Assembly (NCBI GenBank): GCA_022823625.1
Contig: JAJEHQ010000004.1
Coordinates: 8,851-72,850 of the forward strand
Source: Gammaproteobacteria bacterium
Lineage (GTDB): Bacteria; Pseudomonadota; Gammaproteobacteria; Arenicellales; JAJDZL01
Direction of reading: 5' to 3'
Length of the DNA stretch: 64,000 bases
In this document: positions 5,021 through 23,417 of the stretch, piece by piece
How the letters are laid out: the number at the start of each line of letters is the position of its first letter
Position numbering within the stretch: the first letter of the stretch is position 1
Notes under the pieces: generated by a model
Databases searched by the model: none
Told to the model about the DNA's origin: nothing
What the model saw: the letters and a program-made list of their open reading frames with translations, nothing else
Program-made: the position numbers and the translations under genes

Positions 5021-6157
5021 TTGAACTCGATTGACAATTCACGCAATGCACCTGTCTTTGTAACCGGTGCAGCCGGGCATGTGGGATCAAATCTCGTGCG
5101 AAGGCTGCTTAATGATAGCATTCCAATTCGTGTGTTGCTAAGACACGAGGACAACAATGAAGGACTGAAAAATCTGGATGTTGAGTGCCACTATGGTGAC
5201 ATTCGAGACTTAAAAGCCACCCGGAACGCAATGGAAGGTTGCCAAGGTGTCTATCATGTTGCAGCGAAAATTTCTACCATCGATGGTAATCGTGACCATC
5301 GTCGGGAAATATTCGAGACCAATGTTCTCGGCACCCGTAACATTTTGCGAGCGGCGCGTGAGACCGAAGCAGGTCGAGTGGTGGTTACAGGCTCATTCAG
5401 TGCAGTCGGTTATGATCTCGACGACCCCTCCTTACCGAGTGATGAGGCGATGCCATTCTATCCCATGGTACGCACGATGCCATATGAGCGCAGCAAGTCG
5501 CAAGTCGAGCACGAGTGCTGGCGTGCAGCTGCAAAAGGTCAGGAAGTCATTGTCGCAACGTGTTGTGCTGTAATCGGCGGCGCTGATTTTTTTCCATCGC
5601 GACTCGGAAAAACCTTGTGCGACTACACCAATGGGAAACTGCGTGCTTACATCGATGGTGGATTCGAGTTTGTCGCTGCACGCGACATCGTACAAGGACA
5701 TCTGTTATGCATGGAGTATGGGCGCCCCGGGGAAAAATACATATTCAGCAGCGAGTTCAAAACCATCTCTGAAATACTGGATTTATACGAGGAGGTTACC
5801 GGAATACCGCGTCCAGCTCGACGGATACCATCCGCCGTCATGCTGGCTTTCTCGGAAGTGGCGAGTTTCTATCTGAGCCGATACCGTCCGGATTTCAATC
5901 AGCGGTTTACCCCTGGTGCCATCCGTCTGCTGAAGTTACGTCGTCATGCCAGTCTCGAAAAAGCCAGGCGGGAACTGGGCTATCAGTCAACCAGTATTCG
6001 AGAGGCGATTAATGACGCCTATGCGTTTCACTACAACCGTCCGAACGCAATAATAAATCCTGATGCAAAATTTCCCACAGAGAAATCCGAATTCGCAACG
6101 GCGAGTACCATGACTAACAAGAATCTACAGGCAACGCCACAAGGAGGCTCAACTTGA
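5021..6157 (+). CDS. NAD(P)-dependent epimerase/dehydratase-family reductase, SdmB-like (sterol C-4 demethylation partner)
   Basis: 378-aa ORF with a Rossmann motif (VFVTGAAGHVGSNLV) and a TTG start. It is translationally coupled to the downstream Rieske gene. The sterol role is inferred from context. Confidence 0.65.
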   Translation: MNSIDNSRNAPVFVTGAAGHVGSNLVRRLLNDSIPIRVLLRHEDNNEGLKNLDVECHYGDIRDLKATRNAMEGCQGVYHVAAKISTIDGNRDHRREIFETNVLGTRNILRAARETEAGRVVVTGSFSAVGYDLDDPSLPSDEAMPFYPMVRTMPYERSKSQVEHECWRAAAKGQEVIVATCCAVIGGADFFPSRLGKTLCDYTNGKLRAYIDGGFEFVAARDIVQGHLLCMEYGRPGEKYIFSSEFKTISEILDLYEEVTGIPRPARRIPSAVMLAFSEVASFYLSRYRPDFNQRFTPGAIRLLKLRRHASLEKARRELGYQSTSIREAINDAYAFHYNRPNAIINPDAKFPTEKSEFATASTMTNKNLQATPQGGST

Positions 6158-7257
6158 GTTCGCTGCATAATTCACCACCAAGTTTTGAGCAAGCTGGAAA
6201 TTTGCGTCAGAAAGTTCGGGCAACCGGCATGGACCCCGACTATTGGTACGCAGTCGAAGAAGTGCGTCGAATCAAACCTGGAACCGTAGTCGAAGTTATT
6301 TTTTGGAAACAGTCTATTGCGCTATATCGTGCAGAAGATGGATCATTTTACGCACTCGAAAATCGATGCGCACATCGCCAGCTCAAACTCTCACTAGGGA
6401 ATGTTCAAGGCTGTCGGCTTGTCTGCGCATATCACGGCTGGGAATATGACCAGACCGGTCGACGGGCCGATATCCCACAAACGAAGTCGGGCGGAAACAA
6501 AGGTCTGAAGCCTTCAATCAAGAGTTATCCTGTCAAGGTTCGCTATGGTCTAGTCTGGCTGTTTCCCGGCAAGGCTGAACGCTCTGAACAACGAGAGATT
6601 CCGGATATTCCAGAACTTGAAGGGCCAAAACGCTGGGCCTGCGTACCCCTCAGCTTCACTTGGTCAGCCCATCACTCGATGATTATCGATAACGTCAGCG
6701 ATTTCACGCACGCCTATCTTCACCGCAAGTATCGTCCGTTTCAGGATGCCGTCCTCACCCAATATGAGACGGTTGGGGATAACGTTCATCTTGCTTATGA
6801 CACGAAGGTCGGACGCGGGCGGATTTCAGGACTTTTTGTGGAGCACGACAAGATTGATACCAACAGCATGACGCTTTGCTTCCAATACCCCTACCAGTGG
6901 TCGAATACCGATGAGTGGATAAAACACTGGTTATTTGTTTTACCAATCGACGAACGGACCACACGAGTATTTTTTCTGTTTTATTTCAAATCTTTAAAAA
7001 TACCCTTACTGCCCATAAGAATTCCCCGCTTTGCAATGAGCGCAGTCATGAAAATCTCAAACCGCATGATGATTGCTCCCTTGTTAACTCAGGACAAAGT
7101 TGCCGTCGAGGCAGAACAACTGGGTTACGAGGCACACTGGGACGCACCTCCCATTGAATTCAATCCGGTTGTACGCGAGTTTCAAAATTTAACTGTTCGC
7201 AAGTGGGAAGAATACTTGGCCCGTGAATCCATGGAAAACAGTTTCGATAATGCCTGA
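6154..7257 (+). CDS. Rieske [2Fe-2S] non-haem oxygenase, SdmA-like (sterol C-4 methyl oxidase, bacterial type)
   Basis: Rieske motif CAHR...x17...CAYHGW. The TTG start at 6154 overlaps the upstream TGA (TTGA). AAGGAGG lies at 6141-6147, six nt upstream. Confidence 0.7.
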   Translation: MSSLHNSPPSFEQAGNLRQKVRATGMDPDYWYAVEEVRRIKPGTVVEVIFWKQSIALYRAEDGSFYALENRCAHRQLKLSLGNVQGCRLVCAYHGWEYDQTGRRADIPQTKSGGNKGLKPSIKSYPVKVRYGLVWLFPGKAERSEQREIPDIPELEGPKRWACVPLSFTWSAHHSMIIDNVSDFTHAYLHRKYRPFQDAVLTQYETVGDNVHLAYDTKVGRGRISGLFVEHDKIDTNSMTLCFQYPYQWSNTDEWIKHWLFVLPIDERTTRVFFLFYFKSLKIPLLPIRIPRFAMSAVMKISNRMMIAPLLTQDKVAVEAEQLGYEAHWDAPPIEFNPVVREFQNLTVRKWEEYLARESMENSFDNA

Positions 7258-8350
7258 ACCGAACTTTATATCGATGTTGACAACGCTGACGAGCCTGAAC
7301 CTGCTTGAAGCGGCGGGCATGGTTTTGGTATTCGTTGGGGTACTGTTTTTGGGTTCTGTAGTGGTACCTGGACGCCGAATCAAAGGTCCGGATATGGAGG
7401 GCGATACGCGCGAATATAAACTCAATGGTCTTGCGCTGTTTCTGATTACGGTATTTGTGACAGCTATTGTCCAGTCAATGGGTTGGTTTTCGCTTTCGGT
7501 GCTGTATTCGCAGTTTGCCGCTTTGTTCGTGGCTGCAAACGTATTCGCATTTTTACTTGCTACATGGCTTTATTTCCGGGCTACCCGTAATCAGGAAACC
7601 ACTACTGGCTTTTGGCGCAGATATTTTTTCGGTGCGCTGTCCAATCCGACCTGGCTCGGAGTGGACATTAAGCTATTTAGCTATCGCCCCTCTCTCATTG
7701 GTCTCGCACTCTTTAATGCCTCATTCGCCGTCATGCAATACGAAACTTACGGTGAACTGACGCTGGCAATGGTGCTATATCAAATCTTCACTTTTTTGTA
7801 TGTATTCAACTATTTCCAGTTTGAACAGGGAATGGTTCACACATGGGACATGATCAGTGAGCGCTTTGGATGGATGCTGATTTGGGGAGATTATGTCTTG
7901 GTGCCATTTTTTTACTGTTTGGTGGGTTGGTGGCTGGTGCACCCGTCTGATGTGCTGCATCCTATTACCGCAGTAGCAATTGTGTTGTTATTTGGATTCG
8001 GTTTCTGGCTATTTCGCGGCGCCAATCAACAAAAGCACCGCTTCAAACGTAAAGCTGATATCAGGATTTGGGGTCAACCCGCCCGTACCTTGGAAGGTCG
8101 GTTGCTGATCTCCGGTTTTTGGGGTGTTGGACGCCACCTTAACTATACGGGTGAAATTTGTGTCTACTTTTCATTTGCCCTGACCACAGGATTCGAGTCT
8201 TGGGTACCCTACCTCTTGCCTGTATGGTTGACTGTACTGCTGTGTCACCGCTCACTACGTGATGAGCAACGCTGTCGTGCCAAGTATGGCGATCTGTGGA
8301 CGCGCTACAAACAACGAGTCCGTTATTCAATGTTACCGTTTGTCTACTAG
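7250..8350 (+). CDS. Sterol reductase, ERG4/ERG24 family (probable C-14 reductase)
   Basis: Polytopic membrane ORF with the family C-terminus GFWGVGRHLNYTGEI...HRSLRDEQRCRAKYGDLWTRYKQRVRYSMLPFVY. The ATG at 7250 overlaps the upstream stop (ATGCCTGA). The track ORF starts at a GTG at 7223. Confidence 0.8.
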   Translation: MPEPNFISMLTTLTSLNLLEAAGMVLVFVGVLFLGSVVVPGRRIKGPDMEGDTREYKLNGLALFLITVFVTAIVQSMGWFSLSVLYSQFAALFVAANVFAFLLATWLYFRATRNQETTTGFWRRYFFGALSNPTWLGVDIKLFSYRPSLIGLALFNASFAVMQYETYGELTLAMVLYQIFTFLYVFNYFQFEQGMVHTWDMISERFGWMLIWGDYVLVPFFYCLVGWWLVHPSDVLHPITAVAIVLLFGFGFWLFRGANQQKHRFKRKADIRIWGQPARTLEGRLLISGFWGVGRHLNYTGEICVYFSFALTTGFESWVPYLLPVWLTVLLCHRSLRDEQRCRAKYGDLWTRYKQRVRYSMLPFVY

Positions 8351-8377
8351 CGGCAGTAACAAATCAAGGAAGTAACC

Positions 8378-9766
8378 ATGACGACCCTTTCCTCAACACA
8401 TCACACACCGCCACCGGCTAAGAATATTCCGATGCTGACCGGTGGATTGCCCTTGATTGGTCATCTGACGGAGTTTTTAAAGGATCCGGTTTCGATGTTG
8501 ATCCGTGGGTGGCATGAGCAGGGAGAGTTGTTTCAATTTCGTCTCGGTACGCGTAAATTCGTCTTGTTTGCCGGTCCCGAAGCGCATGATTGTTATTTCA
8601 GGGCGCCCCGAGATCACATGAGCGCTAAAGACGTCTATCAATTCACAGTACCAATTTTTGGTCGTGGTGTAGCCTACGACGTTTCCCCCGAACTGATGTC
8701 TGAGCAGTTGGGATTTCTCTACCCGGAACTGCGCGAATCCGCGTTACGCAAGTTTTCTGACATTATGTTTGAGGAGACAATGAATTTTGCTGATGCCATG
8801 GGCCAACAAGGAGAATTGGATTTACCACAGGCGATGAATCAGCTTACGATCAATATTGCCAGTCACTGCCTCATAGGTCCTGAGGTCCGTAATCAGTTGA
8901 ACGCTGGGTTTGCGGAAAGCTATCACGATTTGCAGAATGGAATCAACACCCTAGGCTTTTTCTTTCCTCATTTACCGACACCGGCGCATCGAAGTCGCGA
9001 TCGGGCACGGAAATCCATTTCCGAAATGTTTGAACGAATTGTCATGGAGCGACGGCGTACGGGTGCTAGGTCGGATGATTTCATGCAGAAAGTTATGGAA
9101 AGTCGTTACAAAGATGGCCGTGCGGTTACCGACGAAGAGATTACTGGAATTCTACTGACCGTATTGTTCGCGGGTCAGCACACTAGCGCAGTTCTTGCAA
9201 CCTGGACCTGTTTGGAACTTTTGAATTCGCCGTCGTACATTGACAAATTGCGGAACGAGATGCAGGAAATTTATGCAAATGAAAACGCTTCAAACATTGA
9301 CACCTTAAAGCAACAATCGTTGATGGAGTACACCATACGCGAAAACGAGCGACTACATCCGCCATTGATTTTGTTGATTCGAAAAGTACTCAAACCTGTG
9401 CAATTCGGTGATCATTCCGTACCCGCCGGCACCCTCGCCATGGTATCACCGGCAGCTGCTCACCGCTTGCCTCACCTATTCGCCAATCCAGACCGGTTCT
9501 ATCCGGAAAGATTTGCATCACCGAACCGCGAAGACAAACAACACCGCTACACTTTGATAGGTTTTGGCGGCGGTAATCACATGTGTATGGGGAAGCATTT
9601 TGCCTACCTGCAACTTAAAACGATCTGGACTGTACTGCTTGATCGCTTTGATTTTTTTACCGATCGAGACATTCCTGCCCCGAATTATGGCAGTTGGGTG
9701 ACAGGTCCCAAGGAGCCTTGTCGGGTTCGTTACCAACATCGCTCAAAATCTGGCATTTTCCATTGA
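8378..9766 (+). CDS. cyp51: Sterol 14-alpha-demethylase (CYP51)
   Basis: CYP51 signatures are present: YQFTVPIFGRGVAYDV, I-helix FAGQHTSA, and Cys loop FGGGNHMCMG. There is no fused ferredoxin domain (462 aa). Confidence 0.85.
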   Translation: MTTLSSTHHTPPPAKNIPMLTGGLPLIGHLTEFLKDPVSMLIRGWHEQGELFQFRLGTRKFVLFAGPEAHDCYFRAPRDHMSAKDVYQFTVPIFGRGVAYDVSPELMSEQLGFLYPELRESALRKFSDIMFEETMNFADAMGQQGELDLPQAMNQLTINIASHCLIGPEVRNQLNAGFAESYHDLQNGINTLGFFFPHLPTPAHRSRDRARKSISEMFERIVMERRRTGARSDDFMQKVMESRYKDGRAVTDEEITGILLTVLFAGQHTSAVLATWTCLELLNSPSYIDKLRNEMQEIYANENASNIDTLKQQSLMEYTIRENERLHPPLILLIRKVLKPVQFGDHSVPAGTLAMVSPAAAHRLPHLFANPDRFYPERFASPNREDKQHRYTLIGFGGGNHMCMGKHFAYLQLKTIWTVLLDRFDFFTDRDIPAPNYGSWVTGPKEPCRVRYQHRSKSGIFH

Positions 9767-12700
9767 GCAATAGTCTAGGATTCTATGACGTCGCCATCGT
9801 CGGCGCTGGTCCTGTCGGGAGCGTATGTGCCCTCGCCTACGCAAAAAAGGGCGCTCAAGTTGCTCTGTTCGAAGCGAATCCGAAGGCCTCCAAACGACTG
9901 GCCGGTGAGTGGTTGCATCCGCCGGCTCTTCGAATTCTAAACGAGGTCGGGGTTGAGATTGAATCGCAAATCGAAAGCGTCCCCGGCAACGGGTTTGCTG
10001 TGTTTCCGGAAGACGGCTCGGAACCGATTATACTTCCTTATGCGAACGGGTCCCGCGGTTTGGCATGTGAACATTCAGCACTCGTCTCGCTTCTTCATCA
10101 AAGTGTACAAAATGAGTCTAATATCGACTTTTTTGTTCCAGTTAAGGTTCTTGAAGCCACATCTGGTCAGATATCCATAGCTCTCAACGGAACCAATACT
10201 ACTGTCAACGCCAACCGAATTGTCGGTGCCGACGGTCGCGCATCAACTGTTCGCAAGTCACTGGGATTGCAGACTGGTCGGGTAACCTGCTCGCGTATGG
10301 TGGGGGTGATCGTTGAAGGGGAAGACTTGCAACTGAAGGGTTATGGCCATGTTCTGCTGGGTGGGCCAGGTCCGATTCTCATGTACCAATTGGGGCATGA
10401 TCGCGTCCGGATAATCGTCGATGTGCCGTTGAATCACTGGATTCCGCGTGACCGTATTGGGCTGTTGTCGGAAGCTTACGCCGATCGGCTACCTGAACAA
10501 CTCAGATCTGGATTTGTCGAAGCACTCCAGAACGGAAAATTTCATGCTGCAAACAATGAAATTAGAGCGCGAACGACTCATGGGAATTCAAACCTTGTTC
10601 TTGTAGGCGACGCAGTCGGAAATTACCATCCTATGACTGCGGTCGGCATGACTCTCGGTTTTGGTGATGCTTTCGATTTGGCGATGCACGAGAACTTTCG
10701 AGCATTTTCCTCCAAACGTCACTTGGCAACTCGCGGCCCTGAGTTACTGGCGATGGGTTTGTACGAGATTTTTGCTGACTATCGACGCGAATCAGCGGAA
10801 CTAAGGAGAGCGATTTATAGTAATTGGCGAAAACATCCTTTAGCCCGCAAAGGAACTGTAAGTCTACTTGCTTGTGAAAACACGTCGGTTGTTCATCTTT
10901 CTTTCACTGTTTCCACGATAGTCGCCCTTACGCTCCTTAGACAACTCCCGCGTAACTTTGAAAGACTACCCTGGAACCGTGCATTCAAAGTCATGAATGC
11001 TACCACTGGACGGTTGGTATGGCTGGTGCGCGGCATTATCGCCCAACGTAGAGACCGAAATAGAGGTGGCGAAAAAGACTTTCTTGCCCGTGATTCATTA
11101 GCCCGCGCATTCCTAATTTCCATTCCAACGAGATCCGATGATTCCAGGTCAATTCTCCAAAAGATTCATTCTCCCGATGTCGGTCCTGCCTTGGAGAGGG
11201 CTACAGAGCGTTTGTTGAGTCTCCAGAATGACAATGGCAGCTGGGAAGGAGAAATGGTTTGGTGTCCCATGCTCACCGCCCAATACGCTCTGCTACACTA
11301 CATTCTCGATCAGCCGCTGGAGCCACAACGACGACAACTTATCCTGCTTAGTTTCGAGAAGACTCGTCTTGAACAAGGGGTATGGGGTATGCACGAGCAT
11401 TCCTCACCTCATCTTTTCGTTACCACCCTTGTGTATGTCACATCGAGACTGCTTGGAGTCAGTCAAGATGATCCTTTGATCGAACCAGCGAGGCAGTTCC
11501 TGCAGGCAGAAGGGGTTGTCAATATTCCAAGTTGGGGCAAGTTTTGGCTAGCGCTGCTTAATCTCTACGACTGGGACGGAGTCCATGCTGTACTGCCAGA
11601 ATTGTGGCGACTGCCGCGTTGGTTTGTATTACATCCCTCTAAGTGGTATTGCCACACCAGGCTAATTTACATGGCTATGGCAACAGTTTACTCACAACGA
11701 TACCAAGCACCGATTACATCCACGATCACCTCTTTACGAGAAGAACTTTTTCCCCAAGGTTTTGACAAGGTGAATTTTTCCGAAGCCCGAAACAGTTTGC
11801 GAGAAGCTGATTTATTCTGCCGGCCGAGTCTGTGGCTTCGAGCCGGGTATTGCCTGACAAGAGCGTATGAAAAAGTTCATCTAAAGCGCCAAAGGACTCA
11901 AACTGTCGACAGACTGCTCAAACGAATCAAGTGGGAGTTGCAAACCACTAACCACACAAGCATATCTCCTGTCAGCGGTTTGCTCAATATTCTTGCCTTG
12001 TGGTTGCATGATCGGAATGACTCTGACATGTTGCAGGCGCTATCGCAGTTGGATGGTTGGATTTGGGAGGACGAGGAACAAGGTACGCGAGTTACCGGTG
12101 CAAGGAGTGCTTCGTGGGATACCGGGTTTGCGTTGCAGGCGTTGGCGAAGGTAGCTGAATTAGACAAGGTTCAGAACGCACTCACACATGGCTCTGAATT
12201 TTTGAGCCAAGAGCAAATTGTCAACAGTTTTCAGGGATATCAAGAGGCGAATCGTGCCGACCCTAAAGGTGGTTGGTGTTTTGCGGGAGGATGGCATGGC
12301 TGGCCGGTGTCCGACTGTACTGCAGAGGCTGCACTTGGAATTCTTGCTGTCCATGGCAAAAATTCTGACACCAGCACGTTGAGTGAAGCCGTACAGTTCA
12401 TGTTACGGAGCCAAAATCGAAATGGTGGTTTTGGCAGTTATGAATCAAAACGTTCAATGCTTGGTCTGGAGTGGCTTAATCCAGCTGAGATGTTTGGCGA
12501 ATCAATGACCGAGCACTCCTTTGTCGAATGCACTGCATCGTGCCTTAGCGCACTTAGTGAATTCAAGAGTCATTTCCCACAACTTGCAGACCAGACCGTA
12601 ACGAACGCCATTTCTAGAGGCGAAGCCTGGCTTCGCCGAACGCAAGCGAATGACGGATCATGGCGCGGCGTGTGGGGCGTTCAGTACATTTACGGCACCT

Positions 12701-13143
12701 TGTTTGGGATTCGGGGTTTGCTTGCGGCGGGAGCGAATCCTGGCGACCCGGCACTGCGACTGGCCTGCCATTGGCTGTTAGAGCGCCAACGCAATGATGG
12801 CGGTTGGGGAGAAAGTCACCGAGGCTGCTTCACTGGCCAATACATCGGGCTTGTGGAGAGTCAAGTTATCCAGACCGCGTGGGCTCTCATCGCACTGCTT
12901 GAGGCAGGTGACTCCAACTGGCACGCGATTTCAAATGGAATTGGCTATTTGCTCAACACGCAAAATGTGGATGGAACATGGCCAAAGCAAAATATGGTTG
13001 GTGTGTTTTTTCGCACTGCTCTGTTGGACTATGTACTGTATCGACAATACTTTCCTTTGCATGCATTGTGCCTCTACCAGCAACGACGTAAGATGCGTCA
13101 GTCGGTGAAAGTTGACACTGATTGCTGCACAGTAGCAGACTGA
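9763..13143 (+). CDS. Squalene monooxygenase - oxidosqualene cyclase fusion protein
   Basis: One uninterrupted frame. N-terminal FAD domain: YDVAIVGAGPVGS, VGADGRAS, GDAVGNYHPMTAVGMT. C-terminal cyclase: VSDCTAEA plus QW repeats (RSQNRNGGFGSY, RTQANDGSWRGVWG, ERQRNDGGWGES, NTQNVDGTWP). The start is uncertain. The TTG at 9763 overlaps the CYP51 TGA, and the track ORF begins at a TTG at 9694. Confidence 0.8.
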   Translation: MSNSLGFYDVAIVGAGPVGSVCALAYAKKGAQVALFEANPKASKRLAGEWLHPPALRILNEVGVEIESQIESVPGNGFAVFPEDGSEPIILPYANGSRGLACEHSALVSLLHQSVQNESNIDFFVPVKVLEATSGQISIALNGTNTTVNANRIVGADGRASTVRKSLGLQTGRVTCSRMVGVIVEGEDLQLKGYGHVLLGGPGPILMYQLGHDRVRIIVDVPLNHWIPRDRIGLLSEAYADRLPEQLRSGFVEALQNGKFHAANNEIRARTTHGNSNLVLVGDAVGNYHPMTAVGMTLGFGDAFDLAMHENFRAFSSKRHLATRGPELLAMGLYEIFADYRRESAELRRAIYSNWRKHPLARKGTVSLLACENTSVVHLSFTVSTIVALTLLRQLPRNFERLPWNRAFKVMNATTGRLVWLVRGIIAQRRDRNRGGEKDFLARDSLARAFLISIPTRSDDSRSILQKIHSPDVGPALERATERLLSLQNDNGSWEGEMVWCPMLTAQYALLHYILDQPLEPQRRQLILLSFEKTRLEQGVWGMHEHSSPHLFVTTLVYVTSRLLGVSQDDPLIEPARQFLQAEGVVNIPSWGKFWLALLNLYDWDGVHAVLPELWRLPRWFVLHPSKWYCHTRLIYMAMATVYSQRYQAPITSTITSLREELFPQGFDKVNFSEARNSLREADLFCRPSLWLRAGYCLTRAYEKVHLKRQRTQTVDRLLKRIKWELQTTNHTSISPVSGLLNILALWLHDRNDSDMLQALSQLDGWIWEDEEQGTRVTGARSASWDTGFALQALAKVAELDKVQNALTHGSEFLSQEQIVNSFQGYQEANRADPKGGWCFAGGWHGWPVSDCTAEAALGILAVHGKNSDTSTLSEAVQFMLRSQNRNGGFGSYESKRSMLGLEWLNPAEMFGESMTEHSFVECTASCLSALSEFKSHFPQLADQTVTNAISRGEAWLRRTQANDGSWRGVWGVQYIYGTLFGIRGLLAAGANPGDPALRLACHWLLERQRNDGGWGESHRGCFTGQYIGLVESQVIQTAWALIALLEAGDSNWHAISNGIGYLLNTQNVDGTWPKQNMVGVFFRTALLDYVLYRQYFPLHALCLYQQRRKMRQSVKVDTDCCTVAD

Positions 13144-13337: not shown

Positions 13338-14399
13338 TTAACTGTTTGAATGATGGGGTTTACGTGCCAAAAAGTAGTACATTGTCGTAAATGTACCGGT
13401 TTCACCACCTTTGACAATTGCATCAGCCGCTCTGTTCAAAATGGTGCTGACCATACGAGCGCCTTTAGGAAACAGTCGTACTCTCTCGCCGATTCTCAAC
13501 ACCAGGTTGGTAATCGCACGTCCCGCAGGTGTACGGGGAATACTCCGGAATGTGATGTCACGTCCTTGCAAGGGGCGATACCAAGGTATATCAGAGTTCG
13601 ATGCGCTAGCTAAGTCGCGCGCATCAAGGACCTCGAATCCAGCCTCGCACAATGCTTCATATACCCCTTTCGTGGTGGATATTCTGGGCAGCGCATTTCC
13701 AATCTCAATGTCTCTGACAATTCGCCTGTGTTCTGCATTTTGCGAATCAAACAATTCAGTTACGCACCAATCGTACCCGGCAAAACTCGCTCCTGGGCGA
13801 AGAACACGCAGTATTTCTCCAAACGCCGCTGTCTTGTCTGGCGCATGGGGCATGGACTCGATGGCGAAAGCACCATCAAAGCAATCATTGTCTTCAGGTA
13901 TCTTCATGTAATCGCCATGAATGAAGCGGCACAGCGACTTGATGTCCTCAGCCTGTGTAACTTCTTTGGCGCGCTTTATTTGGTACGCGTTGTTGTTAAG
14001 CCCTACAAATTTAGCCCCTGAATAGCGAGCCAATTCAGCCATTGGTCCCCCTACTCCGCACCCCACATCGAGAATATGCATTCCAGGTTTCAGGGACATT
14101 TGGTCCGCAATAAAATGCTGATGCCTCAGTAATGACGCCTTAAAACTCTCACCTCGTCGTCGAGGTGCAAAGTGAAATGAATTGCCCCAACCAAACTCGT
14201 AGAAGTCAGTTGCCAAGTTGTAGTAGTGGTTGACAAATTTCTGGTAGGTTTCTTTTCGATGTTCTTCGCCAGACTCATAGATTTTTTCATATTCATTGAC
14301 CACAGAATCGACTTCATCATCGGACAGGGCACCGAGCAGCCCAGAAGAATTCAGTTGTTTGTCAAATACCGATGGTAAATCTTTATTTTCTTCAGCCAA
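13338..14399 (-). CDS. Sterol C-24 methyltransferase (Erg6/SMT family), paralog A
   Basis: Region-I motif FYEFGWGNSFHFAP, SAM motif ILDVGCGVGGP, then NNNAYQI. TTG start. Confidence 0.85.
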   Translation of the reverse strand: MAEENKDLPSVFDKQLNSSGLLGALSDDEVDSVVNEYEKIYESGEEHRKETYQKFVNHYYNLATDFYEFGWGNSFHFAPRRRGESFKASLLRHQHFIADQMSLKPGMHILDVGCGVGGPMAELARYSGAKFVGLNNNAYQIKRAKEVTQAEDIKSLCRFIHGDYMKIPEDNDCFDGAFAIESMPHAPDKTAAFGEILRVLRPGASFAGYDWCVTELFDSQNAEHRRIVRDIEIGNALPRISTTKGVYEALCEAGFEVLDARDLASASNSDIPWYRPLQGRDITFRSIPRTPAGRAITNLVLRIGERVRLFPKGARMVSTILNRAADAIVKGGETGTFTTMYYFLARKPHHSNS

Positions 14400-14844: not shown

Positions 14845-15663
14845 CTAACGGATACGCTTTATCGCTGTTTGCGTAAAGTTGCTTTCATCAAGGTCAGTCT
14901 TAAACTCCAGATCCGACCAAAGCATGTCGGTGCTCTTACCGGTAAGATGGTTCACCATCATGATCTTGCTAGCTTGCCAGAAATTATTGAGATACTTTTC
15001 GTAGTTCTCAAGGGTCATCGTTTTTAGGTGTGCGTTTCTACGGTCAAAGAAATGAACCTGCTGGACACGAAGCTCTTCCCGGTCGTACCAAACCAGATGA
15101 CGCGAATAACCTGAATCGGCGCTGACTGGAACACGCTCCAATACTGCACACTGCAAATCGCCGCAGGGTTCGTCGCGCAAGAATTTATGCGTATATTTCT
15201 CAATTTCAACCGCGCCAAGATCCTCGTAAGCAAACTCACTACCCATAAAGGAACCTGACTGTTTTGACGAACTGATCCGTTTTACTCGTTTGAGCGCGGG
15301 TAGATAAAGCCATTGATCATCAGGCTCGAACTTATGGGCATGAACTAGAAAGGCTGTTCCTTTGACGTCACGCGGCTCATCAAACACAAACAGGGAACGG
15401 TCGCCATCCTCTTCAACTTCCAGCACTTTCAACCGCACTTTGCGCGAAGATTCCTTACCCTGTTTGTTTCGCAAAATCATGGTAAGACTTGCCGTGTAAT
15501 TAACAAATCCATACTGCTTTTGGCGGGCTTCCATTGCAATTTGAAACCCTATTTCCTCAGCATTCTGTGCACTCACGGTGAATGGCGTCATAACCAATGC
15601 AAATACAGCAAAATAGATGCTAAGTGATCCGAGGTTGTAATTACGATGAGAAAGACTTTGCAT
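14845..15663 (-). CDS. LolA-like outer-membrane lipoprotein-sorting family protein (periplasmic lipid carrier candidate)
   Basis: Signal peptide present. The core DGDRSLFVFDEPRDVKGTAFL...DDQWLYLPALKRVKRISSSKQSGSFMGSEFAYEDL matches the remembered LolA_like family, which usually partners MMPL/RND permeases. Confidence 0.65.
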   Translation of the reverse strand: MQSLSHRNYNLGSLSIYFAVFALVMTPFTVSAQNAEEIGFQIAMEARQKQYGFVNYTASLTMILRNKQGKESSRKVRLKVLEVEEDGDRSLFVFDEPRDVKGTAFLVHAHKFEPDDQWLYLPALKRVKRISSSKQSGSFMGSEFAYEDLGAVEIEKYTHKFLRDEPCGDLQCAVLERVPVSADSGYSRHLVWYDREELRVQQVHFFDRRNAHLKTMTLENYEKYLNNFWQASKIMMVNHLTGKSTDMLWSDLEFKTDLDESNFTQTAIKRIR

Positions 15664-16209: not shown

Positions 16210-17283
16210 TTAACTGTCTGGATTATGGGGTTTACGTACCAGGAAAAAATATAGTGGTGTAAATATTCCAGTCTCACCGGCTTCGATGAATGCATTCCCC
16301 GCCCTGCCCAGAAATGTGGTGATTTTGTGAGTCCCTTTCGGAACTCCCCGTACTTTCTCACCTATCCTTAACACCAATTTGGTGACTGCACGACCGGTAG
16401 GTGTGATTAGAATATTTCTAAGTGTGAAGTCTGTGAAGTGACGACCTTGAAAGATGTTATACCATGGTATATCGGAGCCAGATATGTGAGCAAGGTCACA
16501 CGTATCGAGAACTTCGAATCCAGCCTCGCAAAATGCTTCACAAATTTCTGCTGCGGTGGAAATTTTGGGTAGTGCGGTCCCAATCTCAATGTCTTCAATA
16601 ATCCGCGTGTGTTCAGCATTCTGCGAGTCAAAAAAGTCGGTTACACACCAATCGTGACCCGCAAAACAAGCCCCTGGACGCAATACACGAAAAACTTCCC
16701 GGAACGCTGCTGTTTTGTCTGGTGCATGCTGCATGGACTCGATGGCGATCGCGCCATCAAAGCAATCGTTGTCTTCGGGTATCTGCATGTAATCGCCATG
16801 AACAAAATCGCACAACGACCCAATATCCTCAGCTTGCGTGATTTGTCTTGCACGTTTAATTTGGTACGCGTTATTGTTAAGTCCCACAAAACTAGCCCCG
16901 GAATAGCGGGCCAATTCAGCCATTGGAGCTCCGATTCCACACCCTACATCGAGTATATGCATTCCCGGTTTCAGGGACATTTGGTCTGCAATAAAGTGCT
17001 GATATCGGAATTTCGACGACTTAAGACTCTCACCCAATCGTCGAGGTGCAAAATGAAAAGATCTGCCCCAGACGAACTCGAATAATCCAGTTACCAGGTC
17101 GTAATAATGATTGACATATCTCTGATATGTCTCTTTTCGATGTTCCTCGCCAGACTCATAAATTTGTTGGTATTCATTGGCCACGGAACTAATTTCATCC
17201 TTGGACAGGTCTCCGAACAAACTGGAAGAATTCATCGCTTTTTTTGGCGACCGTGACGATGGTTTATTTTGATCAGTAGCCAC
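16210..17283 (-). CDS. Sterol C-24 methyltransferase (Erg6/SMT family), paralog B
   Basis: Region I is LFEFVWGRSFHFAP (Phe where paralog A has Tyr), followed by ILDVGCGIGAP. The GTG start is preceded by GGGAGGAG. Confidence 0.85.
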   Translation of the reverse strand: MATDQNKPSSRSPKKAMNSSSLFGDLSKDEISSVANEYQQIYESGEEHRKETYQRYVNHYYDLVTGLFEFVWGRSFHFAPRRLGESLKSSKFRYQHFIADQMSLKPGMHILDVGCGIGAPMAELARYSGASFVGLNNNAYQIKRARQITQAEDIGSLCDFVHGDYMQIPEDNDCFDGAIAIESMQHAPDKTAAFREVFRVLRPGACFAGHDWCVTDFFDSQNAEHTRIIEDIEIGTALPKISTAAEICEAFCEAGFEVLDTCDLAHISGSDIPWYNIFQGRHFTDFTLRNILITPTGRAVTKLVLRIGEKVRGVPKGTHKITTFLGRAGNAFIEAGETGIFTPLYFFLVRKPHNPDS

Positions 17284-17326: not shown

Positions 17327-17334
17327 TTCTAGAA
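17327..17334. promoter_or_regulatory. TTCTAGAA palindrome in the SMT-B leader (candidate operator)
   Basis: It lies ~44 nt upstream of the SMT-B start, within a ~55-nt leader similar to that of SMT-A (shared CTGAGTTGA...ATTGA.CAA...TTCTAGAAG). Confidence 0.3.
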
Positions 17335-17839: not shown

Positions 17840-17869
17840 TTCGAAGCAACATAAATTCGTGGGAATTCT

Positions 17870-18226
17870 ATGAGAATTGAGGACATTTCACAAATTGCAC
17901 TTTATACATTTGTGGTGTTGATTTTTTATGTTCCAATCTTTATTGCGCTAATGAAAAAACACTCTCATAGAATTGCAATTCTTTCAATTAACTTCGTCGG
18001 TGGGATCGCACTTTGGCATACCATTGCCGGTTGGATGGCTCTGAAAAAATCAAATACTCTCGTTGAAATTAACATCCGAATGTTCCTGTTAGTCGCGGCC
18101 GGTGCAGCAATCTGCTGGCTAGTTTCACTAATTTGGTGTTTCGTCGACCCAAAGAAGTCTAAGACTATTTCGGCAGTTTCTGATAGCGGTGAAACTGATG
18201 ACGAAAAGAATGCAGGGAGCAAATGA
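17870..18226 (+). CDS. Small membrane protein, possibly superinfection-immunity (Imm)-like
   Basis: 118 aa with three hydrophobic helices. The stretch IALMKKHSHRIAILSINFVGG resembles the Imm-family N-terminus. The match is weak. Confidence 0.35.
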   Translation: MRIEDISQIALYTFVVLIFYVPIFIALMKKHSHRIAILSINFVGGIALWHTIAGWMALKKSNTLVEINIRMFLLVAAGAAICWLVSLIWCFVDPKKSKTISAVSDSGETDDEKNAGSK

Positions 18227-18614: not shown

Positions 18615-18690
18615 GGGCCGTTAGCTCAGTTGGCAGAGCAGTTGACTCTTAATCAATTGGTCCGGGGTTCGAATCCCTGACGGCCCACCA
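18615..18690 (+). tRNA. tRNA-Lys (anticodon CUU)
   Basis: 76 nt folding by hand into a cloverleaf: acceptor GGGCCGT/ACGGCCC, anticodon loop CTCTTAA, T-loop TTCGAAT, encoded CCA. It is near-identical in layout to E. coli tRNA-Lys. Confidence 0.9.
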
Positions 18691-18876
18691 GTTTCTTTTT
18701 ATTGACAAATTTGGGCATCTGGCAATTCTCTTTGGTGCGAATTGATCAGTACAATGTTTCTGATGCTTATGATTTCGTCGGATATTACCTGCAACCTACA
18801 GTTAGAATATTCTTCCCAATAGGTTATCCACGCAACCAAGTGTAGGTGTCAATCATTTATCGAGTGAATATTTGAA

Positions 18877-21207
18877 ATGAATGTTTATGAATTTTTCAAC
18901 TTGGTAGTCAGATACCGCTGGTTAACAATTTTTCTTTCGTTGCTGATTGTGGTGGTGTTCGCTGCGGGAGTTACGCGAATTGTTACTGTCGACGTAGATT
19001 TTCGAAATCACTTCAACAAAGATGATCCGCATTTGGTTAAGCTCGAAGAAATGGAGGATCTGTTCGCGCTTTCAGATAGCGCACTTGTAGTGATCGCACC
19101 CTCGACTGAAACCATTTTTACCCGTGAGGCACTTGCCGCAGTCGAACAGTTGACCGAACAGCTTTGGCTGACTCCGTATGTAGTTCGCGTCGATTCTTTA
19201 GCAAACTACTCACATAGCGAAGGACTCGAAGACGAACTAATCGTTGAACAGCTATTCGAAGATGCGATTTCGCTGAGTGACGAAGAGTTGGAGCGAATTC
19301 AGAGGATCGCACTCGATACGACGGATATCGCCGGTCGTTTTATTTCACGAGACGGTCGTCTCGGTGGATTTGTTATTAGTCTTGCACTTCCCGATAGTGA
19401 TCGAGAAGCAGCAAAAATTGAAGTTGTCGACTTTCTAAATGGCCTTGCTGTTGAAGCTCGCACCAGCAATCCGGAATTTGAATATCACCTCTATGGTGAT
19501 CTCTTTCTTAATCGCGCCGTCCGTGACGCGATCAATAACGATATAGCCGTTCTAGCACCAATTGCGTTTGGCACGATGCTGCTGGTCGCGTTAATAGTAC
19601 TTCGATCAATTTGGGGAATGATTGCGATCGTTGCCATGTTGATGACCGTGTTGCTTTCTGCGCTTGGGTTTACTGGTTGGACGGGTATGCCTTTGTTTGG
19701 AGAGAGTGGTGCAGCGTTGTTTGTATTAATGGCGATTGCCATCGCTCATTCGGTTCATGTAATTGAGGTAATGGCAGATGGTATGCGCTCAGGGATGTCA
19801 CGCAGGTCTGCCGCGATTCATTCCTTGCAACTCAACGCGTGGCCTGTATTTCTGACTTCACTAACCACCGCTATCGGTTTTCTCAGCTTGAATTTCTCGG
19901 AAATGCCCCCGTTTCGAGTCATGGGCAACATCGTCGCATTCGGAGCGATGTGCGCATTCGTATTTTCGGTCACACTTTTGCCTGCATTGTTGTCGATTAT
20001 GCCCATGAGAACTCGGGTTGCACCAGCAGGAAAACTATACTTTTTTGATCATCTGGCAAAATTTGTTGTTTCCAATAGTACCCGATTGTTGTGGACTTTT
20101 GTCATCTTAACAGCCGTACTCGTTGTCGGAATTACGCGCATCGAGCTCAACGAAAATCATTTGGAAATTCTAGATGAAAGTTACGAGTTTCGACGGTCCA
20201 CCGATTTCATAGTGGAAAATTTCTCAGCATTGGAGCCATTCGAGTACTCGCTTAATTCAGGTCGCGATAGCGGTGTTACTGATGTTGAGTTTCTGCGTAA
20301 TGTCGACGCTTTCGCACAGTGGCTTCGAATGCAGCCGGAAGTTTCTTACGTTGTGTCATTTACTGACGTTCTTAAGCGGCTGAATGAAAACCTGCATGGT
20401 GACGACCCCAATTTTTATAAGCTGCCGGAGGATTCTGAACTTGCCGCGCAATACTTGCTGCTTTACGAATTCTCTTTGCCAGTTGGACGCGATCTAAACA
20501 ATGTCATTGATGTCGAACGTTCCAAAACTCGCTTAACAGCTGTTATTAAAGGTTTGTCGATTGGTGAGAAGATTGAACTCGACGAACGTGCGAAATCCTG
20601 GCTGCATCAAAATGCTCCAGGTATGGCAACCGGAGCAACCGGAGTTACGATAGTCGGTGCATATTCGATTATGCGAAACATAGAAAGAATGCTGATCGGA
20701 ACTATCATTGCGATGTCCATAGTTTCGTTGCTACTGATATTTGTCTTTAGAAGTTTCCGGTTTGGTCTGATTAGCCTGATACCCAATTTCGTTCCAGCCA
20801 TCATGGCTATGGGTGTATGGGGATACGTCGTCGGACAGGTTGATATATCGGCTTCGGTTGTTACAGCAATTGCTTTTGGTATCATCGTGGACGATACGAT
20901 ACATCTTATGACAAAATACCTGAGAGAGCGGGCTAGCGGGAAGTCGCCTGAGGATGCTATCCGGCCGGTATTTCGAATAGTGGGCCGTCCGCTATTGACA
21001 ACAACAGCAATTTTTGCCTTGGGATTCATGGTGTTTGGAACGTCAGCACTGTCTGCCAATCAGACACTCGGTGTGTTGGTGGGACTAACTGTTGTAATTG
21101 CGCTGGTGGCGGATTTATTGCTGTTTCCGCCGTTGCTAATGACCTTGGACAAAACCAGGGGTAAACTGAGTGATTTTAAGAAAGGATCTTCTCATCACGC
21201 ACGCTAG
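18877..21207 (+). CDS. RND-superfamily MMPL/HpnN-type permease (candidate sterol exporter)
   Basis: 776 aa with the 1+5 / 1+5 TM pattern and two large soluble loops typical of RND permeases. The sterol role is inferred from context only. Confidence 0.7.
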   Translation: MNVYEFFNLVVRYRWLTIFLSLLIVVVFAAGVTRIVTVDVDFRNHFNKDDPHLVKLEEMEDLFALSDSALVVIAPSTETIFTREALAAVEQLTEQLWLTPYVVRVDSLANYSHSEGLEDELIVEQLFEDAISLSDEELERIQRIALDTTDIAGRFISRDGRLGGFVISLALPDSDREAAKIEVVDFLNGLAVEARTSNPEFEYHLYGDLFLNRAVRDAINNDIAVLAPIAFGTMLLVALIVLRSIWGMIAIVAMLMTVLLSALGFTGWTGMPLFGESGAALFVLMAIAIAHSVHVIEVMADGMRSGMSRRSAAIHSLQLNAWPVFLTSLTTAIGFLSLNFSEMPPFRVMGNIVAFGAMCAFVFSVTLLPALLSIMPMRTRVAPAGKLYFFDHLAKFVVSNSTRLLWTFVILTAVLVVGITRIELNENHLEILDESYEFRRSTDFIVENFSALEPFEYSLNSGRDSGVTDVEFLRNVDAFAQWLRMQPEVSYVVSFTDVLKRLNENLHGDDPNFYKLPEDSELAAQYLLLYEFSLPVGRDLNNVIDVERSKTRLTAVIKGLSIGEKIELDERAKSWLHQNAPGMATGATGVTIVGAYSIMRNIERMLIGTIIAMSIVSLLLIFVFRSFRFGLISLIPNFVPAIMAMGVWGYVVGQVDISASVVTAIAFGIIVDDTIHLMTKYLRERASGKSPEDAIRPVFRIVGRPLLTTTAIFALGFMVFGTSALSANQTLGVLVGLTVVIALVADLLLFPPLLMTLDKTRGKLSDFKKGSSHHAR

Positions 21208-21407
21208 CAAAGCTTAAGCGCAATTTGCAGAATCTCGCCGCGCTTACATCGAAATTACACATTCGATTTGGAGATGAGGTGCACACTTTAAAAGTGCTGA
21301 TTACTACACCCTGATTCATTTCAAGAGCAACTGTGAGGTTTCGAGAGTCAAAGCTCTCTTTATTGTCAAATTGAGACTTGGCCTCGACCGAATGACAACC
21401 TCTTCAC

Positions 21408-23417
21408 TCAGGCAGGAAAATCCTTCCATCGTTCTGCAATATGAATTTTCAGTTTTTTACTGACTGACAGGGAGGAATAGGCGTTGAATTTAAACTTGAA
21501 ATTCGGATCTGACAATTCGAGCCTGAAGTGATGTGCGATCATCAACAGATTGACAGCCATATGCTTCACCACCCAGCGTACCCCGAGGCACATATGGGTG
21601 CCCAGTCCAACTGGAGCAAATGAAGTACTGCGATGCGCGTTGGTGGGCGGAAGATAACGGTCAATGTCAAATTTGAATGGTTCTGGGAACGCCTCTTCCA
21701 TAAAATGTGCGGCCCCCATTACAATGAAAACATGTTCTCCAACGGGTAACTCGATGTCATCGACCAACCACGAATTTGACACGTTTCGAGGAATTAAATA
21801 GACGACAGGGTAAATTCGCTGACACTCAAGCACAAAGCGGTGAGTAACGTCGAAATCCGATAAATCTAAGGTCTCTGGGTCTGGATCGCCATTGGAAAAA
21901 ATGGCATCGGCTTCGCTGCGAATTTTTGCATACAAGTCGGGTTGTGTTACCATGGCGTAGATGGCGCAACCCATGAGATCGGAAAAGTACTGGCTTGCAA
22001 GCATCGGCGACGAGAGCATGAACCTCAAATTCGCCTCGGGGAAGAATTGCGGATCGCTGGCATACAAAGAAAGTGTTTCATCAGCAAGTTCCCAAGGTTG
22101 ACCAACCCGTTGTTCAGGCGTATGGTTCTGCTGAACTCTTTTGACAGCATCATCAACAGCTTTGCGACCGCGTTTCATTCGCGAAGTATTGAACAACAAT
22201 CTTGTCACAAACTTGGGTGGATTGAAAACGATGTGGATCATTTGAACCGCGTTCTTCCACTTCATTACATCCTCAAAAATATCGTTCGTTTCCGTACTCG
22301 TAAGAAGTGGCATGATTTGAGCATTAGATAATTTCCGTGAAGTTTCATACACTTGCACATGTGAACCCACTTTCCAATGACTCTTCATGTGGTTACGAAT
22401 CATATCGAAAACAGAATTCATCTCACTCTCAAGTTTCCTGACCGAATAGGCTCGCTGCAAAGCTCTACGCAAAGTGAAGTGATCGGATCCGTCTAGACTG
22501 ACTAGCACCCCGATACCGCCGTATTCATTTTCCACACCTTGATAAAACTTCTTCGATGTCAGGTACTGGCGCCCATTACGATGAACCCAGCGGTTGATAT
22601 CGATACCGGCAAGGAAAGTCATTGGCTGAGTTAAAGGTATGTTAATCCGAAAAACCGAACCATACTCTTTGGCGAAATCTGCAAGCATCGCAGGTATATT
22701 ACCGTTCCAAACGTGTCGATTCGATAGAATCTTAAGCAGTGGAACGGATGGTATTTTTTTCTTGAAACTGGGACGCTGCAGTAACGGAACAGCAATAGAA
22801 TCTTTAACAGCAGCAGCAATTGAGCGACCGATCAGTTCCATCTGACAGATTTGCTCAATTCGTTTTTCTGCTTTTTCATCAATTTCAAAGATGAAGTGAA
22901 ACAAACCACACGAATTAACAAGGCCGACAATGATGATGTCTCTCGGGAGGGGAATTGTGTTAGAAAAAATAGCATCGCTAATTCGCGACTTGATTAACTG
23001 ACTAGCTGTATGTTCTTGAGAGTATCCATGCCACGTCGCGGGAGCCAGCGTCCAGAACTCGCCTTCATGATGCTTCAGAATTTCCAATTTAACCAGACGG
23101 TCAAGCGTGGAATCAATTATGTCCTCCGCGTGGACAGCGAGTCGTTCGATCCAGTAGCGGGCATTGTGAGGAGTCTTGTCCTTCGAGATTGCCTTCAGAC
23201 AAAGATCTAAAACTGGATCACCAGTTTCTGTCGGGTCCAATACAAAAAGTGATTCAATGTCTGTATCAATTCGCGACTGTAGGGAAAGGTCTGCGAGTGC
23301 GGCTCCAATGACAGCGCAATTTAGGGACCAGCCGGGTACTTGATAAAAATAACCGGTCTGCTCGTTTAAAAGCATTAAAACCAGCTCTTCAGGCAAATTC
23401 AAACGTCGGGTCGCCAT
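21408..23417 (-). CDS. GPP34/GOLPH3-like domain - cytochrome P450 fusion
   Basis: Residues 1-~200 show the GPP34 pattern (LPEELVLMLLNEQTG, IGAALADLSLQSRIDTD, VLDPTETGDPVLD, PRDIIIVGLVNSCGLF). Residues ~215-669 are a full P450, with ExxR at ECQR and Cys loop FAPVGLGTHMCLG. Confidence 0.75.
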   Translation of the reverse strand: MATRRLNLPEELVLMLLNEQTGYFYQVPGWSLNCAVIGAALADLSLQSRIDTDIESLFVLDPTETGDPVLDLCLKAISKDKTPHNARYWIERLAVHAEDIIDSTLDRLVKLEILKHHEGEFWTLAPATWHGYSQEHTASQLIKSRISDAIFSNTIPLPRDIIIVGLVNSCGLFHFIFEIDEKAEKRIEQICQMELIGRSIAAAVKDSIAVPLLQRPSFKKKIPSVPLLKILSNRHVWNGNIPAMLADFAKEYGSVFRINIPLTQPMTFLAGIDINRWVHRNGRQYLTSKKFYQGVENEYGGIGVLVSLDGSDHFTLRRALQRAYSVRKLESEMNSVFDMIRNHMKSHWKVGSHVQVYETSRKLSNAQIMPLLTSTETNDIFEDVMKWKNAVQMIHIVFNPPKFVTRLLFNTSRMKRGRKAVDDAVKRVQQNHTPEQRVGQPWELADETLSLYASDPQFFPEANLRFMLSSPMLASQYFSDLMGCAIYAMVTQPDLYAKIRSEADAIFSNGDPDPETLDLSDFDVTHRFVLECQRIYPVVYLIPRNVSNSWLVDDIELPVGEHVFIVMGAAHFMEEAFPEPFKFDIDRYLPPTNAHRSTSFAPVGLGTHMCLGVRWVVKHMAVNLLMIAHHFRLELSDPNFKFKFNAYSSLSVSKKLKIHIAERWKDFPA

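Follow-up and report, generated by a model that had tools for sequence, protein, structure and literature searches.

The locus described here raises the question whether a block of co-localised sterol genes in an uncultured bacterium is an exceptional, recently acquired pathway or a further member of a recognised type of gene cluster. The block (positions 5021-23417) lies within a stretch of 64,000 nucleotides, hereafter called the window (contig JAJEHQ010000004.1, positions 8,851 to 72,850 of the forward strand; GenBank assembly GCA_022823625.1, Gammaproteobacteria bacterium, Arenicellales). An earlier note, made from the sequence letters, had read it as a near-complete sterol supercluster. 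We found that all the open reading frames (ORFs) listed in that note for this region are present at their coordinates and belong to the expected families, as judged by comparisons with Pfam, NCBIfam and PDB (Table 1). The co-localisation of these sterol genes goes far beyond chance, and dozens of genomes carry the same set. The block is very probably a sponge-symbiont-type bacterial sterol cluster, of the kind published under the names 'msb' and 'CSG', that forms part of the chromosome of an Arenicellales-like gammaproteobacterium, as yet uncultured, sampled in the metagenome of an Ircinia sponge.

Relatives of the fused squalene monooxygenase/oxidosqualene cyclase (SMO/OSC; the fused cyclase) encoded in the block were collected in a scan with one genome per GTDB species (341), and 80 loci were retained for comparison; those referred to below by label include L003, L004, L005, L010 and L027, of which L004 and L005 belong to Arenicellales. 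The occurrence of genes was counted in a tblastn matrix over these 80 species-representative loci, taking into account features located within 10 kb of the cyclase gene. All five core genes (sdmB, sdmA, erg24, cyp51 and smo/osc) were found together at 64 loci, and at 59, representing many phyla, their order is identical. A sterol methyltransferase (SMT) gene accompanies the cyclase at 56 of the 80 loci. As for the accessory genes, a full-length fusion of a GPP34 domain with a cytochrome P450 (GPP34-P450) is encoded near the cyclase at 26 loci, a resistance-nodulation-division (RND) pump at 21 and a LolA-like protein at 12, and the whole feature set is present in the window's lineage only. The opinion that described bacterial sterol loci are rarely this complete in one place is thus contradicted by the frequency with which the core genes and the SMT occur together.

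The closest relatives of the fused cyclase are encoded by the gammaproteobacterial metagenome-assembled genome (MAG) jk18x25bins.87 (98% identity), followed by Arenicellales chromosomes (89-93%). Cyclases sharing 61-78% identity were detected in MAGs of Alpha- and Gammaproteobacteria, Nitrospirales, Binatia, Acidimicrobiales and Thermodesulfobacteriota, and in those labelled Vicinamibacterales, Bryobacterales, Longimicrobiales, Porisulfidus and Poriferihabitaceae. Many of the cyclase-bearing MAGs are recognisably derived from sponges, e.g., Porisulfidus, Poriferihabitaceae and the Spongia bins. The exact cyclase product is also on record in the ENA assembly KELL22-1_SAMN22237341 and in one Logan assembly. 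MAG jk18x25bins.87, and very probably the window as well, comes from the Ircinia study of Kelly et al. (2022, PMC9531527), because the MAG names in that paper have the form jk18x..bins... The KELL22-1 label of the window's source assembly, the Ircinia-study naming of the nearest MAG and the sponge-derived relatives all point to a sponge-associated bacterial host.

This type of locus is not new to the literature. In a gammaproteobacterial symbiont of Melophlus, the msb locus comprises six genes, msbA-F, including one for a bifunctional epoxidase/cyclase (Mohanty et al., 2020, PMC7074536). Judged from the published gene order, the window contains the same six genes in the same arrangement: an NAD(P)-oxidoreductase (msbA), a Rieske oxygenase (msbB), a sterol reductase (msbC), a C-30/14-demethylase (msbD), the bifunctional squalene epoxidase/cyclase with the diagnostic Val that is also found in the window protein (msbE) and an SMT (msbF). 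For msb, squalene synthase is encoded elsewhere, and likewise none is encoded in the window. The window has, beyond the msb set, a second SMT, the LolA-like gene, the RND pump, a tRNA and GPP34-P450, and no linked glycosyltransferase locus is known for it. In turn, CSGs, i.e., ERG24-CYP51-LSS modules with flanking SMT and 'DFR' genes, were reported in 115 of 537 Ircinia symbiont MAGs spanning ten phyla, with horizontal gene transfer and purifying selection (Kelly et al., 2022, PMC9531527). The ERG24-CYP51-LSS core is that of the window and the CSG 'DFR' corresponds to SdmB; SdmA and SdmB were not annotated by the pipeline used there, and the passages of the paper that were searched contain no discussion of the cyclase fusion, the transporter, the LolA-like protein or GPP34-P450.

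The order of the window genes is found again in the Aplysina aerophoba symbiont sequence JGIcombinedJ30088_10000835, where genes 9-16 encode an SMT, an unannotated protein, a second SMT, SMO/OSC, CYP51, ERG24, SdmA and SdmB (Brown et al., 2023, PMC10070321); by gene order, the LolA-like gene of the window stands in place of the unannotated one. Fused SMO/OSC proteins are also mentioned in that study. The collinear sdmB-sdmA-ERG24-CYP51-fused SMO/OSC genes with a neighbouring SMT give the window the organization typical for the msb/CSG type. Since the order of the cluster matches msb, the CSGs and the SMT clusters, our central finding is a rediscovery, and this literature, too, speaks against the supposed rarity of such loci. 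The cluster type was already published from sponge-associated bacteria, apparently including the very dataset from which the window derives, and only some of the accessory genes look undescribed.

The five core genes are encoded on the plus strand (5021-13143), with stops and starts which overlap or nearly abut (overlaps of 4 bp for sdmB/sdmA, 8 bp for sdmA/erg24 and 4 bp for cyp51/osc). The top NCBIfam match of the first protein is SdmB (NF052578, 277 bits) and that of the second, SdmA (NF052579, 407 bits), yet neither passes the 600-bit equivalog cut-off of its model; the NCBIfam cut-offs for SdmA, SdmB and OSC were tuned on Methylococcaceae-like sequences. The SdmA-like translation shows the CxH...CxxH and DxxHxxxH motifs, and such a pair, composed of a Rieske gene overlapping a short-chain dehydrogenase/reductase (SDR) gene within a sterol cluster, was observed at 64 of the 80 loci. 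The SdmA/SdmB pairing put forward in the earlier note is therefore supported with regard to protein type, top matches, motifs and gene overlap, but falls short of the equivalog thresholds. Judged by sequence, the two proteins are SdmA/SdmB homologues and not certified equivalogs. Their orthologues in sister clusters were found to be 43-47% identical to MCA1016/1017 (Brown et al., 2023, PMC10070321).

The third core protein matches ERG4_ERG24 (E 1.3e-74, 252 bits), and its top PDB match is the bacterial delta14-sterol reductase 4QUV (E 1.5e-72). It is on account of this match and of the adjacency to CYP51 that we favour a C-14 reductase over ERG4/DHCR7-type specificity. CYP51 contains AGQHTS and FGGGNHMCMG motifs, and its top 56 PDB matches, over residues 11-455, are all CYP51 proteins, with 7JJ1 in first place and Methylococcus capsulatus CYP51 (6MCW) as a close second, both at E ~1e-102. 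The ERG24 and CYP51 assignments made previously are therefore upheld.

The fused cyclase is a single uninterrupted ORF of 1126 residues, with the epoxidase at residues ~1-410 and the cyclase at ~475-1110, and its N-terminal half matches human squalene monooxygenase (E 3.6e-26). The DCTAE motif is characteristic for oxidosqualene cyclases, and DxDDTA for squalene-hopene cyclases (SHCs). The window translation contains VSDCTAE, which aligns to D455 of human lanosterol synthase (LSS) within HGWPVSDCTAE. The score is 407 bits against human LSS vs 191 against SHC (PDB sequences), and 717 bits with the osq_cycl model TIGR03463 (own cut-off 851) vs 292 with the hopene-cyclase model TIGR01507. The predicted protein is of the OSC and not of the SHC type; a grouping with SHCs, which the earlier note had named as a result that would speak against its view, is favoured neither by profile nor by PDB-sequence scores. 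In the alignment with human LSS, positions 453 and 449 of the cyclase are occupied by Val and His, respectively. We take T381, C449 and V453 of human LSS to be the residues that determine lanosterol specificity, V453 being presumably of the lanosterol type and His449 of the cycloartenol-synthase type. A mechanically called TTG start at position 9694 was rejected, as it has no match on record, while the product that begins at 9763, where the ORF overlaps the CYP51 stop, is recorded.

Table 1. Features in and next to the sterol gene block (positions within the window).
Feature	Coordinates	Strand	Basis
IS1595-derived remnant, 940 bp (context, not pathway)	3607-4546		31-nt inverted repeats
SdmB-like NAD(P)-dependent 3-beta-hydroxysteroid dehydrogenase/decarboxylase-type reductase	5021-6157	+	Pfam Epimerase and 3Beta_HSD
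SdmA-like Rieske oxygenase (4-methylsterol monooxygenase type)	6154-7257	+	Pfam Rieske and VanA_C
ERG24-type sterol C-14 reductase	7250-8350	+	Pfam ERG4_ERG24
CYP51 sterol 14-alpha-demethylase, without fused ferredoxin	8378-9766	+	PDB matches, motifs
Fused squalene monooxygenase/oxidosqualene cyclase	9763-13143	+	Pfam SE, FAD_binding_3, SQHop_cyclase_N/C
SMT1, Erg6-type sterol C-24 methyltransferase	13338-14399	-	Sterol_MT_C 67 bits
LolA-like periplasmic protein, N-terminal signal peptide, candidate sterol carrier	14845-15663	-	LolA_like E 5e-60
SMT2, divergent SMT1 paralogue	16210-17283	-	Sterol_MT_C 62 bits
Small predicted membrane protein (118 aa), between SMT2 and tRNA	17870-18226	+	No significant Pfam match
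tRNA-Lys(CTT)	18615-18690	+	ARAGORN; Rfam 71.6 bits
MMPL/HAE3-type RND inner-membrane transporter, candidate sterol exporter	18877-21207	+	Pfam MMPL
GPP34 (GOLPH3-like) domain with divergent P450, candidate sterol-tailoring enzyme	21408-23417	-	Pfam GPP34, p450

From the membership of these proteins in enzyme families and from published assays of their homologues we infer the cyclisation, C-14, C-4 and C-24 steps. The fusion protein would convert squalene, provided by genes elsewhere in the genome, to its epoxide and then to a lanosterol-type protosterol. CYP51 would then take off the 14-alpha methyl group and the ERG24-type enzyme would reduce the resulting delta-14 bond, while the C-4 methyl group(s) would be removed by the SdmA/SdmB pair. 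SMT1 and SMT2 would add one or more methyl groups at C-24 of the delta-24 side chain, GPP34-P450 would most likely tailor the sterol further, and the RND pump together with the secreted LolA-like protein would carry it across the periplasm, either to the outer membrane or to the cell exterior. The order of these steps is a prediction, as are the products, which may be 24-methyl, 24-ethyl or 24-isopropyl and either 4-methyl or 4-desmethyl sterols. Among the window ORFs we found no squalene synthase, C-8/7 isomerase, C-5 desaturase, or delta7 or delta24 reductase, so that the term near-complete was too strong. An Rfam scan of the window yielded no riboswitch or RNA other than the tRNA, and promoter and terminator scans remained at background level.

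Several points weigh against assigning the block to the msb/CSG type of sterol cluster. The SdmA, SdmB and OSC models of NCBIfam give the top matches, yet their curated cut-offs are not reached. The cyclase has His449, as in cycloartenol synthases, and therefore its exact protosterol is uncertain. The RND pump is only distantly related to BstA and HpnN and is an orthologue of neither. Within the window, we found neither a squalene synthase nor a ferredoxin or reductase to serve the P450s or the Rieske protein as partner, and the sterol products of this organism are predicted from its genes.

Both SMTs exceed the gathering score of Sterol_MT_C (PF08498; 21.7 bits), which agrees with the two Erg6-type enzymes recognised earlier. 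They share 69% identity and coincide with a DNA repeat (D1, 74% identity) with a spacing of 2881 bp, and thus mark a 2.9-kb duplication. Region I of Erg6, which we take to read YEYGWGxSFHF, has the canonical form YEFGWGNSFHF in SMT1 and the variant form FEFVWGRSFHF in SMT2; among the 56 SMTs of the related loci, this variant is confined to the window's lineage. SMT1 is 60-70% identical to the SMTs at most other loci. SMT2, which has Phe at the position of Erg6 Tyr81, could add the second and third methyl groups toward 24-isopropyl sterols. A tie of SMT2 to the characterised propylating SMT of A. aerophoba was not found: the metagenome scan returned one unrelated contig (55%), and the sole JGI-sourced protein among the 120 listed matches is 57% identical and comes from another sample. 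The PDB search likewise revealed no true Erg6-type SMT structure of help. A single bacterial order shows SMT copy numbers between 1 and 3. At L004 (3539-4540) and L010 (776-1777), an additional, third SMT gene (64-66% identity with SMT1) is located directly upstream of sdmB, the position which in the window is occupied by the remnant of an IS1595 insertion sequence (IS).

SMTs of bacterial clusters were demonstrated to methylate sterols in vitro, three of them adding up to three carbons, and those of the A. aerophoba cluster were active, one yielding 24-isopropyl sterols (Brown et al., 2023, PMC10070321). The notion of side-chain alkylation as classically a eukaryotic trait, cited in the earlier note, is therefore outdated. 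The same work describes an active SMT in a Chlamydiae MAG without other sterol genes and discusses mixed host/symbiont pathways, which brings up the alternative that the SMTs, GPP34-P450 and the transporter of the window mainly modify sterols which are taken up from the host sponge, the de novo branch being minor or inactive. Sets of GPP34-P450, SMT and RND genes located away from the cyclase in some symbionts would agree with this, as would a squalene synthase not encoded in the window. However, the operon of SMO/OSC, CYP51, ERG24 and SdmAB is intact, free of frameshifts and placed directly beside the SMTs, and purifying selection was reported for ERG24, CYP51 and LSS of such clusters (Kelly et al., 2022, PMC9531527). 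We regard such a role in the modification of host sterols as unlikely, although it survives better than the other alternatives, and retain a sterol cluster of the msb/CSG type with its own de novo branch.

With regard to transport, the sterol operon of M. capsulatus, with sdmAB and bstABC, encodes BstA, a member of the MMPL family (Lee et al., 2018; Zhai et al., 2024, PMC10942540). Similarity between the two loci comprises the Rieske and SDR proteins of C-4 demethylation, a CYP51 close to that of the window and the association of an MMPL-superfamily RND protein with sterol genes. Yet, in the window SMO and OSC are fused, CYP51 is devoid of the ferredoxin fusion and SMTs, which M. capsulatus lacks, are encoded. 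The predicted transport resembles that of the Bst system, whose route to the outer membrane is presumed, but employs other protein families. The RND pump scores 179 bits with the HAE3 model, 117 with HpnN and 30.7 with BstA (cut-off 1400), in each case below the cut-off. In place of BstB (PhnD-like) and BstC (TatT-like), for which the window has no ORF, it encodes a LolA-like protein; the window thus does not carry a BstABC system. The LolA-like protein matches PDB entry 3BK5 (E 8e-78). LolA is unmentioned in the paper on bacterial sterol transport (PMC10942540) and in a review on lipid trafficking (PMC11713862). It is their gene neighbourhood that suggests a role of the RND pump and the LolA-like protein in sterol transport. 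The 118-residue membrane protein encoded nearby is kept only in close Arenicellales relatives (85-98% identity at L003, L004 and L027).

The RND, LolA-like and additional P450 genes named in the earlier note are all present, but it had been overlooked that this P450 is fused to an N-terminal GPP34 domain (PF05719, E 6e-32; p450, E 6e-34). A word-indexed search returned 949 homologues of the fusion at E <= 1e-10, and the best 120 of the 949 all have the same two-domain architecture of ~675 residues and are annotated merely as 'cytochrome P450'. An exhaustive search gave 243 clusters at 50% identity (E <= 1e-30), with dozens of full-length fusions and identities down to ~25%. On independent sponge-metagenome contigs, GPP34-P450 adjoins genes for SMT, sdmAB, RND, a KshA-like Rieske protein and an amine-oxidase-type flavin adenine dinucleotide (FAD) enzyme. 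Near the cyclase, the RND pump and GPP34-P450 are found together at 18 loci, the pump only at 3, the P450 only at 8 and neither at 51. GPP34-P450 is a large uncharacterised family which recurs with the RND pump beside sterol genes, and it is the only fresh lead that the window provides. Within the literature that could be searched, no paper connects GPP34 with bacterial sterols.

The haem-ligand motif GLGTHMCLG and ExxR are intact in the fusion. In its I-helix, ASQYFS stands in place of the AGQHTS of CYP51; the family conserves AS.Y(F/L).., with invariant Tyr477 and Asp480, and thus the canonical I-helix threonine is missing. The absence of the conserved acid-alcohol pair suggests non-canonical P450 chemistry, and the enzyme may catalyse a non-standard conversion of sterols, perhaps at the alkylated side chain. 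The AlphaFold model of the fusion has a pLDDT of 70, and Foldseek against PDB retrieved only generic class-II P450s (BM3, CYP97, CYP24A1, CYP51), so that the fold points to no particular function. The GPP34 domain aligned weakly to 3KN1/9QPQ (E 0.013), with R90 placed opposite Ile37 and W81 opposite Pro28; W81, R90, R171 and R174 are presumably the residues which form the phosphatidylinositol 4-phosphate pocket of human GOLPH3. It is tempting to regard GPP34-P450, the LolA-like protein and the RND pump of HAE3 type as a module for the tailoring and export of sterols that is as yet undescribed and is exchanged horizontally between sponge symbionts, and in which GPP34 would serve for lipid or membrane targeting, the P450 would be non-standard and SMT2 would add the second and third methyl groups; as a joint proposal we put this forward tentatively, and with more doubt than confidence.

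Further candidate sterol-tailoring genes, absent from the window, are those for a KshA_C-type Rieske protein and an FAD enzyme with Amino_oxidase/NAD_binding_8 domains, located beside GPP34-P450 at L084/L085 (13975-16642) and L093 (3237-7709).

Heavy tailoring is what one would expect if the cluster supplied the aglycone of a specialised triterpenoid or steroid, such as sarasinoside-like saponins, and not membrane sterols. The extra P450 of the window and the KshA-like and FAD oxidases in the clusters of other symbionts would suit this possibility, and in Melophlus the msb locus was connected with the biosynthesis of sarasinosides (Mohanty et al., 2020, PMC7074536). Yet, no glycosyltransferase or sugar-nucleotide gene is present in the 64-kb window, and the occurrence of the cluster, with conserved synteny, in numerous sponge genera and phyla is more readily explained by a general lipid than by a single metabolite family. 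A supply of aglycones is thus improbable, slightly more so than a function in the modification of host sterols, and an msb/CSG-type cluster for sterols as general lipids remains our preferred assignment.

The earlier note considered the block transferable, on the grounds of an IS remnant on its left flank and of the embedded tRNA. Both features exist. The remnant, with 31-nt inverted repeats at 3607-3637 and 4516-4546 (94% complementary), retains the truncated N-terminus of a transposase (ORF 4100-4471, minus strand; Zn_ribbon_IS1595, 27.4 bits vs a cut-off of 25.4). These intact terminal repeats ~475 bp upstream of sdmB, the tRNA-Lys gene inside the block and the movement of the cluster family between phyla (61-78% identity across Proteobacteria, Nitrospirota, Binatota, Acidobacteriota and Actinomycetota; Kelly et al., 2022, PMC9531527) could be taken to indicate a mobile island, recently acquired via an IS element or tRNA integration. 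Against this, the IS1595 element is a single small, truncated and non-autonomous fragment present on one side only. No full-length integrase gene was found in or beside the block, the sole integrase-like ORF being a sub-threshold fragment of 126 residues (58053-58433) ~35 kb away, and a repeat search detected no tRNA-derived direct repeat or duplicated tRNA 3' end. The guanine-cytosine (GC) content of the block (47.5-50%) is ordinary for the window (mean ~48%). Moreover, the tRNA adjoins the RND gene likewise at L003, L004, L005 and L027, and the right flank (EEP, glyoxalase, GlcF/GlcE) is syntenic in L004 and L005, with identities similar to those of the cluster genes.

Because Arenicellales relatives show synteny at this site, our data lend no support to recent mobility, and a newly acquired island is quite improbable, more so than a supply of aglycones. 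The tRNA and the right flank, syntenic in L004 and L005 at matching identities, argue for vertical inheritance within the order, and the msb/CSG-type cluster of the window looks vertically inherited within Arenicellales. Only the distribution of the cluster across phyla gives evidence of horizontal transfer, which represents older movement and was already reported by Kelly et al. (2022, PMC9531527). An assembly error that would have placed eukaryotic DNA from the sponge, with its sterol genes, in a bacterial contig, a thought prompted by SE, ERG24, SMT and GPP34 families best known from eukaryotes, can be rejected with near certainty, given intron-free genes with overlapping operon junctions, the SdmA/SdmB pair found in bacteria only, the bacterial tRNA and flanks (GlcDEF, COQ7, multihaem cytochrome c) and the matching arrangement in closed bacterial chromosomes of 2-5 Mb.

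Other genes of the window are mentioned here as separate observations. At 16-35 kb to the right of the sterol cluster, the window encodes a DDE_Tnp_1 (IS4-like) transposase (39539-41266) and the above-mentioned phage-integrase fragment; they belong to families other than IS1595 and do not bracket the sterol block. A stretch of low GC content (40.5% at 30001-32000) includes, at 30493-32800, an MqsA-type antitoxin/helix-turn-helix gene with a small upstream ORF and a gene for an HNH_2 endonuclease, and may represent a small toxin-antitoxin or defence islet. A 461-residue ORF on the minus strand (56166-57551) shows weak matches to PAP2 and to the second domain of vanadium chloroperoxidase (E ~1e-5, below the cut-offs) and may encode a haloperoxidase-like enzyme; it is adjoined by an ORF of 346 residues with no Pfam match.

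On the left side, a three-gene operon of the minus strand (168-3603) encodes a second GPP34 protein (2419-3603), a multihaem cytochrome c (924-2453) and a Tll0287-like haem protein (168-734). The GPP34 protein (PF05719, E ~2e-35) ends in a histidine-rich membrane segment of 4-5 helices. Its ORF, called at 449 residues, probably reaches too far into the IS repeat, with Met56 at position 3603 as the likely start, because ~100 cluster representatives have ~393 residues. The same trio is found on Defluviicoccus and Gammaproteobacteria sponge-symbiont contigs with no sterol genes nearby, and for this reason we rejected the GPP34 protein and the cytochromes as an electron supply for the cluster.

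Altogether, the window adds another well-assembled example of this cluster type, with the fullest accessory set among the 80 loci, and leaves the published picture unchanged. The recently diverged pair of SMTs should be useful for structure-function work on the number of methylations. The RND pump and the LolA-like protein constitute a candidate route of sterol export unlike the Methylococcus Bst system. If the tailoring-and-export module proposed here proves true, it would provide the first functional context for bacterial GPP34 proteins, with GPP34 acting as a lipid- or membrane-targeting domain.

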